From a virus (taxonomy: Duplodnaviria > Caudoviricetes): a DNA stretch of 64,000 bases. Of this stretch, positions 16,653 to 16,833 are shown piece by piece. Made by a program: the position numbers and the translations under genes. Numbering within the stretch: the first letter of the stretch is position 1; each line of letters begins with the position of its first letter. The stretch is taken from IMG/VR virus record IMGVR_UViG_3300033121_001507, positions 4,038 to 68,037 of that record. One strand, written 5' to 3'. Under the pieces are notes generated by a model. It saw nothing but the letters and a program-made list of their open reading frames with translations. It was not told the origin of the DNA and did not search any database.

Positions 16653-16833
16653 TAGCAACGGGTTCCCGTTACCCGCCACGGGCACCTATAAAACGGGGGC
16701 GCAAACGGGCGCAAACGGGGCGCAGTAACACGCGGGGCAGTAGGGCGGTAGGGTAACACGGTTGCGTGTTACGGCGGTTTATAGGGGCGCTAATAGGTTC
16801 GGAACCGGAGGGTTCCAGACCTTAAAAAAGTGC

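Follow-up and report, generated by a model that had tools for sequence, protein, structure and literature searches.

Control DNA free of GA and TC in a phage genome carrying a putative thymidine-hypermodification cassette

In the phages M6, ViI and phiW-14 thymidine is hypermodified by way of 5-hmdU (PMC5889632, PMC8989533, PMC6449724). The conversion of 5-hmdU is specific to sequence context, and up to half of the T is replaced in such phages (PMC8989533). TG or TC is present in the restriction-resistant sites of M6, ViI and phiW-14, TG being the context modified by the M6 kinase (PMC6449724). The phage genome analysed here has enzyme families in common with these systems, and homology suggests that it shares with the M6-type system a thymidylate-synthase homologue and proteins of the 5-hmdU DNA kinase and aGPT-Pplase types. 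To these its cassette adds an ADDT-like protein, HAD and HD hydrolases and a 272-aa protein of unknown function, and no radical-SAM or PLP enzyme was found in it. Unlike M6 and Epa43, this phage also carries non-coding stretches (islands) that are devoid of GA and TC. In another described system, that of CAjan, DpdA places preQ0 at GA and GGC (PMC7544227); the likeness lies in the mark on GA, which would predict a purge of GA/TC, whereas the present genome has no DpdA/TGT or preQ0 synthesis genes and does not avoid GGC in its islands. Vertebrate CpG islands offer an analogy only, as both would be short regulatory stretches with a modification state unlike that of the bulk DNA, recognisable by their dinucleotide content. 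CpG islands, however, keep the target dinucleotide since they are unmethylated, while here the target would have been removed and marking made impossible, and there is no kinship between the organisms or the enzymes involved. Removal of nuclease targets is common in phage genomes, and six-base palindromes are the usual targets of restriction. The likeness of the islands to palindrome avoidance, which in this genome is strong for GTAC, GGGCCC and AGCGCT, is that short words are removed by selection. Palindrome avoidance, though, is genome-wide and concerns words of 4-6 bp, whereas the islands concern a 2-bp step that is lost from only ~770 bp of control DNA and enriched elsewhere.

The window, that is, the whole stretch of DNA that was analysed, comprises 64,000 bases of a 68,037-bp viral contig, the ends of which overlap by 71 bp, so that the assembly is probably circular. 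Profile matches and homology placed a putative thymidine-hypermodification cassette at 21757..27662 on the plus strand, encoding a HAD hydrolase, the ADDT-like protein, the 272-aa protein, an HD phosphohydrolase, a P-loop kinase-like protein, an HMUDK_hel / aGPT-Pplase1-type protein and the thymidylate-synthase homologue. The HMUDK_hel / aGPT-Pplase1-type ORF (25745-26647, +) matches PF18723 above the cut-off (1.6e-39) and is homologous to M6 ORF055. The P-loop kinase-like ORF (24723-25745, +) matches phrog_800, a family that includes the M6 kinase gp54 and is annotated 'terminase small subunit' (PMC8989533), and the two ORFs together are predicted to provide the 5-hmdU DNA kinase / aGPT-Pplase pair. 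The thymidylate-synthase homologue (26634-27662, +; PF00303, 4.2e-26) has 44% identity to its M6 homologue and scores far under every NCBIfam thymidylate-synthase cut-off, and the assignment of the ADDT-like protein (22343-23332, +) is weak, its PF18724 match (E=2.7e-4, 21.2 bits) lying below the 26.2-bit cut-off. The families searched for DpdA/TGT, QueC and FolE (GTP cyclohydrolase I), namely PF01702, PF06508 and PF01227, were unmatched in the 68-kb genome; as controls, they were matched in 14, 13 and 11 of 14 genomes, respectively. The lack of these genes, together with the many GGC in the islands, excludes a preQ0 mark at GA/GGC here. Another candidate modification gene (19986..20642, +) encodes a 218-aa amino-methyltransferase-like protein with a DPPY motif, which matches phrog_3816. 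Its product was unmatched in Pfam and NCBIfam.

A sequence-only reading of this DNA had claimed that 134 bp at 16666-16799 contain no GA or TC, against 12 in a comparison line at 9901-9960. Recounting gave the same numbers (GA = 0, TC = 0; and 12 in the comparison line), and the full non-coding run, here island 1 (16665..16799), is 135 bp long, free of both steps on both strands and bounded by TC at 16664 and TC at 16799 (gap 135). From its own base composition (62% G+C) island 1 would be expected to hold 16.3 GA/TC, and zero was reached in none of 200,000 mononucleotide shuffles. TA is over-represented in the island (12 observed). Over the whole window GA and TC make up 15.5% of the steps (GA 5087, TC 4854; observed/expected 1.25 and 1.24), more than any other complementary dinucleotide class, and by chance their longest gap would be ~55. 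The ratio of the longest gap to the expected maximum is 2.5 for GA/TC vs ~1.4 for the best other dinucleotide class. These analyses confirmed that the depletion of island 1 is real, highly non-random and specific.

Besides island 1 there are six further GA/TC-free runs of 66-138 bp, so that ~770 bp of control DNA are purged overall. Island 2 (35054..35191, 138 bp) lies between the convergent plus- and minus-strand gene arms and forms three strong predicted hairpins (fold z = -4.0 for the island), one of them GCCCGTGG-N12-CCACGGGC, without a T run. Island 3a (61813..61913, 101 bp) is located ahead of the structural-gene promoter region and has two predicted hairpins of 15-16 bp with CCACGGGC-type arms (fold z = -8.8), also without a T run. 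Islands 3b-3e (62419..62854) comprise runs at 62419-62526 (108 bp), 62570-62635 (66 bp), 62636-62716 (81 bp) and 62717-62854 (138 bp); single TC steps separate islands 3c-3e (62570-62854), and several TC/GA lie in 62526-62570, between 3b and 3c. Across the seven runs AG and CT, whose composition is identical to that of GA/TC, occur 64 times and GA and TC not at all, while AC and GT counts are normal and TA is over-represented, though rare genome-wide (0.58). For five of the other runs, too, none of 200,000 local-composition shuffles reached zero GA/TC. The gene at 61918-62421 was considered as part of the depleted block and rejected, as GA/TC occurs 38 times in its 504 nt and TTC, ATC and GTC are among its codons.

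The motifs named in the sequence-only reading are all present in island 1: CCACGGGC at 16676, GGGCGCAAAC at 16697 and 16707, GTAACACG at 16725 and 16753, and CGTGTTAC on the other strand. The CCACGGGC box (16676..16683, +) was followed by motif counting and has 12 copies in the window vs about 1.6-1.9 expected. Seven of the 12 are in intergenic control DNA, six of them inside GA/TC-free runs, and the sites concerned are islands 1, 2, 3a and 3b plus 63191. No enrichment of CCACGGGC was found in the relatives, the box being special to this genome. Three tandem GGGCGCA(A/G) boxes follow at 16696..16725 (+), with the two GGGCGCAAAC copies among them, and additional copies of GCGCAAA(C/G)GGG are found in two 5′ leaders, at 7541 and 63356. 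An inner inverted repeat, CGCAGTAACACGC / GCGTGTTACGGCG (16721..16776; 13-nt arms, spacing 30 nt), is the only stem retained in the centroid fold of the island, and it is nested in an outer one, GCACCTATAAAACG / CGGTTTATAGGGGC (16682..16788; 14-nt arms, 86% complementary, spacing 79 nt), through which TATAGGG dyads are common to islands 1 and 2. Finally, GGTAGGGTAACAC (16747..16759, +) is an exact 13-mer that island 1 has in common with a GTAGGG iteron field elsewhere in the genome. The recurring boxes from which island 1 is built are CCACGGGC, GCGCAAAC and the iteron-like GGTAGGGTAACAC. The RNA fold of island 1 does not differ from that of shuffles (z = -0.08), a search of 16300-17000 for a terminator-like site (a G+C-rich hairpin with a T run) found none, and Rfam covariance models at gathering score gave 0 matches in the whole window.

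Upstream, the stop codon of the last ORF of an operon (93 aa, 16371..16652, +) lies 13 nt before island 1. Downstream, 35 nt separate the end of the island from a sigma-70-like site, TTTACA-17-(TG)AATACT with an A-tract upstream (16834..16862, +), and the earlier claim of a new promoter after the island agrees with this site. The predicted promoter heads an operon that starts at 16913 and includes DNA polymerase A, replication and thymidine-hypermodification genes. The first ORF of this operon (114 aa, 16913..17257, +) has no family match and has homologues in two relatives; a protein structure atlas gave a weak fold lead to a small beta-barrel. Within it, 17180-17235 is low-complexity Ala/Lys/Glu-rich coding sequence that draws partial matches from unrelated contigs of the same study. 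Because its boxes are reused at other control sites of the genome, we read island 1 as a putative composite cis-regulatory spacer between the end of an operon and a strong promoter.

To get clues to the context that might be marked, we examined codon usage, T contexts and palindromes. Synonymous sites prefer TC/GA (TTC 493 vs TTT 209; ATC 636 vs ATT 380; GGA is the top Gly codon), so that bulk DNA favours the step, and mutational loss of TC was rejected on this ground as the cause of the islands. GA/TC is scarcer in non-coding DNA than in genes. Its observed/expected ratio falls from 1.27 in coding to 0.99 in non-coding DNA, the largest drop in the comparison, but this comparison was based on a crude gene caller and was diluted by missed genes beyond use. 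Several short regions between promoter and ribosome site hold 3-6 GA/TC per 100 vs 15.5. TC is the commonest T context, as 31.8% of all T are followed by C, and this share is compatible with the published replacement of up to half of the T. Palindromes of 6 bp occur at 321/375 of expectation (0.86) when they contain TC/GA vs 264/431 (0.61) when they do not (label permutation p=0.0046), and splitting them instead by TG/CA, CT/AG, GT/AC, TT/AA or CC/GG revealed no sparing of step-bearing palindromes in this genome. In M6, the positive control, TG/CA palindromes are spared (221/279 vs 297/834, p=0.0097), and in the pooled random viral loci, the negative control, TC/GA palindromes are not (0.61 vs 0.70). 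The palindrome signal is thus TG in M6 and TC here, and both fit the published placement on T with G or C as its 3′ neighbour. A log2 ratio above 0.3 was obtained for TC/GA in 16 of the 32 cassette genomes, for TG/CA in nine, for CT/AG in four and for GT/AC in one; by these counts it is the base 3′ of T that matters, not the one 5′ of it. TG and TC palindromes are both spared in Epa43 (L016/L017), G017 and G019, and TG palindromes in M6 (L018/L019), which points to TC plus TG and to TG, respectively, as the protected contexts. Genome-wide avoidance in the present phage affects GTAC (74 observed vs 244 expected) and CTAG (56 vs 132), GGGCCC and AGCGCT are absent, and TC/GA is found in none of the 12 6-bp palindromes with the strongest avoidance.

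The 32 cassette genomes (2.04 Mb) are this phage (G000) and 31 other cassette-bearing genomes. With a length threshold for significance set per dinucleotide class, they contain 26 significant GA/TC runs, in nine of the 32 genomes, compared with 8-9 for CA/TG, three for AC/GT and none for AG/CT. In 204 random viral loci (1.89 Mb) there were ten GA/TC runs and none of the other three mixed classes. Nine of these ten runs come from one over-sampled phage family, and the lineage-level enrichment in cassette phages is only ~4-fold, with p about 0.04 as estimated from the counts. Runs of at least 130 bp, and genomes with multiple runs, were seen in the cassette set only. The phage has no near match in the phage record collection, and its pol relatives reach at most 57% identity in viral contigs and at most 62% over fragments in metagenomes. 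Islands recur in relatives. Two members of the gene-sharing family of this phage carry them, G006 at 2 kb upstream of pol (163 bp) and after the gp34-like gene (72 bp), and G012 upstream of the portal gene. Their positions correspond to those of islands 1, 2 and 3, although they have no sequence in common with them. In a distant pol clade, islands of up to 276 bp lie directly after pol. In G011 (L136), 2.4 kb of G+C-rich non-coding DNA (6914-9360) is poor in TC/GA (99) and TG/CA (131) and rich in AG/CT (305) and AC/GT (231), and T stands there mostly in TA (CTAG, GGTAG) and almost never before C or G. Islands were sought and not found in the cassette phages M6, Epa43, G001, G007, G009 and G010, and none were seen in G017 and G019 either. 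Islands and palindrome sparing do not co-vary, G006 and G012 having islands without sparing and G007 and G010 sparing without islands. Beyond the genes used to choose the set, no G000 gene tracked the islands among the 32 genomes, and the eight pol-clade records tested as possible non-cassette controls all carry the cassette except one fragment. In the over-sampled family of the random loci, a conserved GA/TC-free element of 103-119 bp, a terminator-like hairpin flanked by TTGCAAATG boxes, was observed in L314:6086-6204 and in L281, L290, L296, L307, L323, L328, L335 and L337. Neither aGPT-Pplase nor TGT was found in the five contigs of this family that were searched (L281, L283, L290, L296 and L314), and GA/TC-free runs are accordingly not confined to cassette phages.

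As the best explanation, though with chances that we hold to be evenly balanced, we propose that the islands are control DNA kept free of a putative thymidine hypermodification in TC context. According to this proposal 5-hmdU would be acted on by the kinase and then substituted, post-replicatively, where C follows T. Any stretch lacking TC on both strands would be unmarkable, so that its A:T pairs would stay small (T or 5-hmU) in virion DNA and replicating DNA alike, and the proteins or hairpin/cruciform structures using the islands would meet unchanging DNA at all times. The analyses show the purge itself, its restriction to GA/TC, its recurrence in relatives and the presence of the cassette; we infer the marking of T in TC, the absence of the mark from the islands and the existence of binders. 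The idea of T modification in TC context had been raised in the sequence-only reading, and the cassette, the literature on TG/TC, the sparing of TC/GA palindromes and the 31.8% of T in TC all fit it. Its broader statement, that sites read by proteins are purged, went too far: the operator-like repeats GTCAAATTTTTGAC and GCTCGGACATTTCA, one TTGACA -35 element and the intrinsic terminator at 34978-35011 hold TC/GA, so only some control DNA is purged. It is conceivable, and we put it at somewhat below even, that phages which hypermodify T in one 3′-neighbour context generally keep 'unmarkable' control islands purged of that dinucleotide. With the same reserve, and as a joint reading, the purged step (TC here; TC and TG in G011) and the spared palindromes (TG in M6) might together read out the specificity of the 5-hmdU kinase, with genome sequence as the sole input. 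No description of islands purged of a target dinucleotide was found in the literature searched, which included nanopore/motif mapping of hypermodified thymidine.

The readings that compete with hypermodification in TC context differ in what they take to have purged the step. The sequence-only reading had named a GA/TC-containing restriction or toxin target as its alternative. Avoidance of a nuclease with a TC/GA target, from host defence or from the phage itself, with the rest of the genome protected otherwise, would account for a purge that is symmetric on both strands, as expected of a reader of duplex DNA, and would suit a genome that strongly avoids GTAC and many 6-bp palindromes. We nevertheless think it unlikely: TC/GA is over-represented everywhere else, synonymous sites included, which is the opposite of avoidance, and no candidate enzyme was found. 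Moreover, we know of no nuclease that reads only a dinucleotide, which to our knowledge is shorter than any nuclease target. If the target were protected by modification, this reading would merge with the main explanation. An improbable alternative, too, is that the dinucleotide itself is not read and its absence is a by-product of arrays of hairpins and boxes (CCACGGGC, GTAGGG, GCGCAAAC, TTTGCAACC) that happen to lack GA/TC. Repeats and inverted repeats do make up much of the islands, only half of the positions of an inverted repeat are independent, and the terminator-like element described above belongs to an unrelated, cassette-free phage family. But the spacers and loops between the boxes are also without GA/TC, seven runs of differing sequence all lack it while holding 64 AG/CT, and the relatives, which show no enrichment of CCACGGGC, avoid it at matching positions in unrelated island sequences.

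In a GA/TC step the A of one strand pairs with the T of the other, so the sequence cannot tell which base is marked, and a mark on the A of 5′-GA by the DPPY amino-methyltransferase, encoded five genes downstream of island 1, or on G by a 7-deazaguanine system as in CAjan, where preQ0 is placed at GA and GGC (PMC7544227), would leave the same trace. Against the methyltransferase, all 31 other cassette genomes lack a homologue, including the eight that carry islands; against the deazaguanine system, TGT/DpdA, QueC and GTP cyclohydrolase I are missing and GGC is abundant inside the islands. We regard a mark on another base as quite unlikely, and know of no methyltransferase specific for the dinucleotide GA. 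The sign of the effect is not given by sequence alone either, and control DNA might be what needs most protection: TC could be the sole unmodified T context, with the islands the most heavily modified and best protected DNA. We judge this reversal very unlikely, as TC is the commonest T context and is enriched besides, so that the genome would be favouring unprotected sites, and the tolerated palindromes are those with TC/GA, which fits protection at TC. Chance or an assembly artefact seems hardly credible. The lower frequency of GA/TC in non-coding DNA makes long gaps there somewhat likelier than the genome-wide frequency suggests, yet the shuffles never reached zero for island 1 or for five other runs, and seven runs occur in one genome. 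An independent assembly of the sequencing run, which may derive from the same data, reproduces 15500-35400 without difference.

If control DNA is indeed kept free of TC-context hypermodification, the context of thymidine hypermodification would become predictable from a genome or metagenome without chemistry, and the islands would mark out the few hundred bp that have to stay ordinary DNA in a heavily modified phage. Host factors, phage regulators, replication or packaging would be candidates for using these sites. Partial, context-limited modification would combine protection with readable control DNA, and the islands would be a phage counterpart of CpG islands. If the proposal is false, there is still a direction-specific dinucleotide rule in the control DNA of several phage lineages, one of them without the cassette.

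Several other elements were noted around the islands. Between 62571 and 62813 there are three tandem 81-bp repeats, two of them identical, and five TTTGCAACCGG boxes lie in 62485-62851; this part of the GA/TC-free block 3b-3e is a candidate iteron, partition or packaging site. The 167-aa ORF at 61918-62421 (-), which adjoins islands 3a and 3b, is far G+C-richer than the genome, has atypical codons and ends in the C-terminal GKGKGKGKGRK. Residues 1-102 gave a weak WGR-domain-like lead, and its product is possibly DNA-binding. The palindromic, operator-like GTCAAATTTTTGAC has four copies (61796-61817, 62848-62914) and the operator-like GCTCGGACATTTCA three (63025-63121). A family of predicted promoters with an extended -10, TG-n-TATACTGTAA, was observed at 3023(-), 7520, 9702, 11200, 12740, 24701, 28995, 33262 and other positions; the -35 element is TTTAC(N), not TTGACA, in five of the six scored, so that the core hexamers are without GA/TC on both strands. 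Outside the window, at about 2400-3130 of the genome (window -1640..-906), lies the 722-bp non-coding GTAGGG iteron field, with at least ten GTAGGG copies on both strands, an A+T-rich core and divergent promoters, and it is poor in GA/TC (63 in 722). Island 1, which has only two GTAGGG copies and lacks an A+T-rich stretch, does not resemble an iteron-type origin; the field fits the description of an origin better and is a candidate replication origin. A VapE/DUF5906 primase-helicase gene (525-2765) is found ~1.4 kb from the field.
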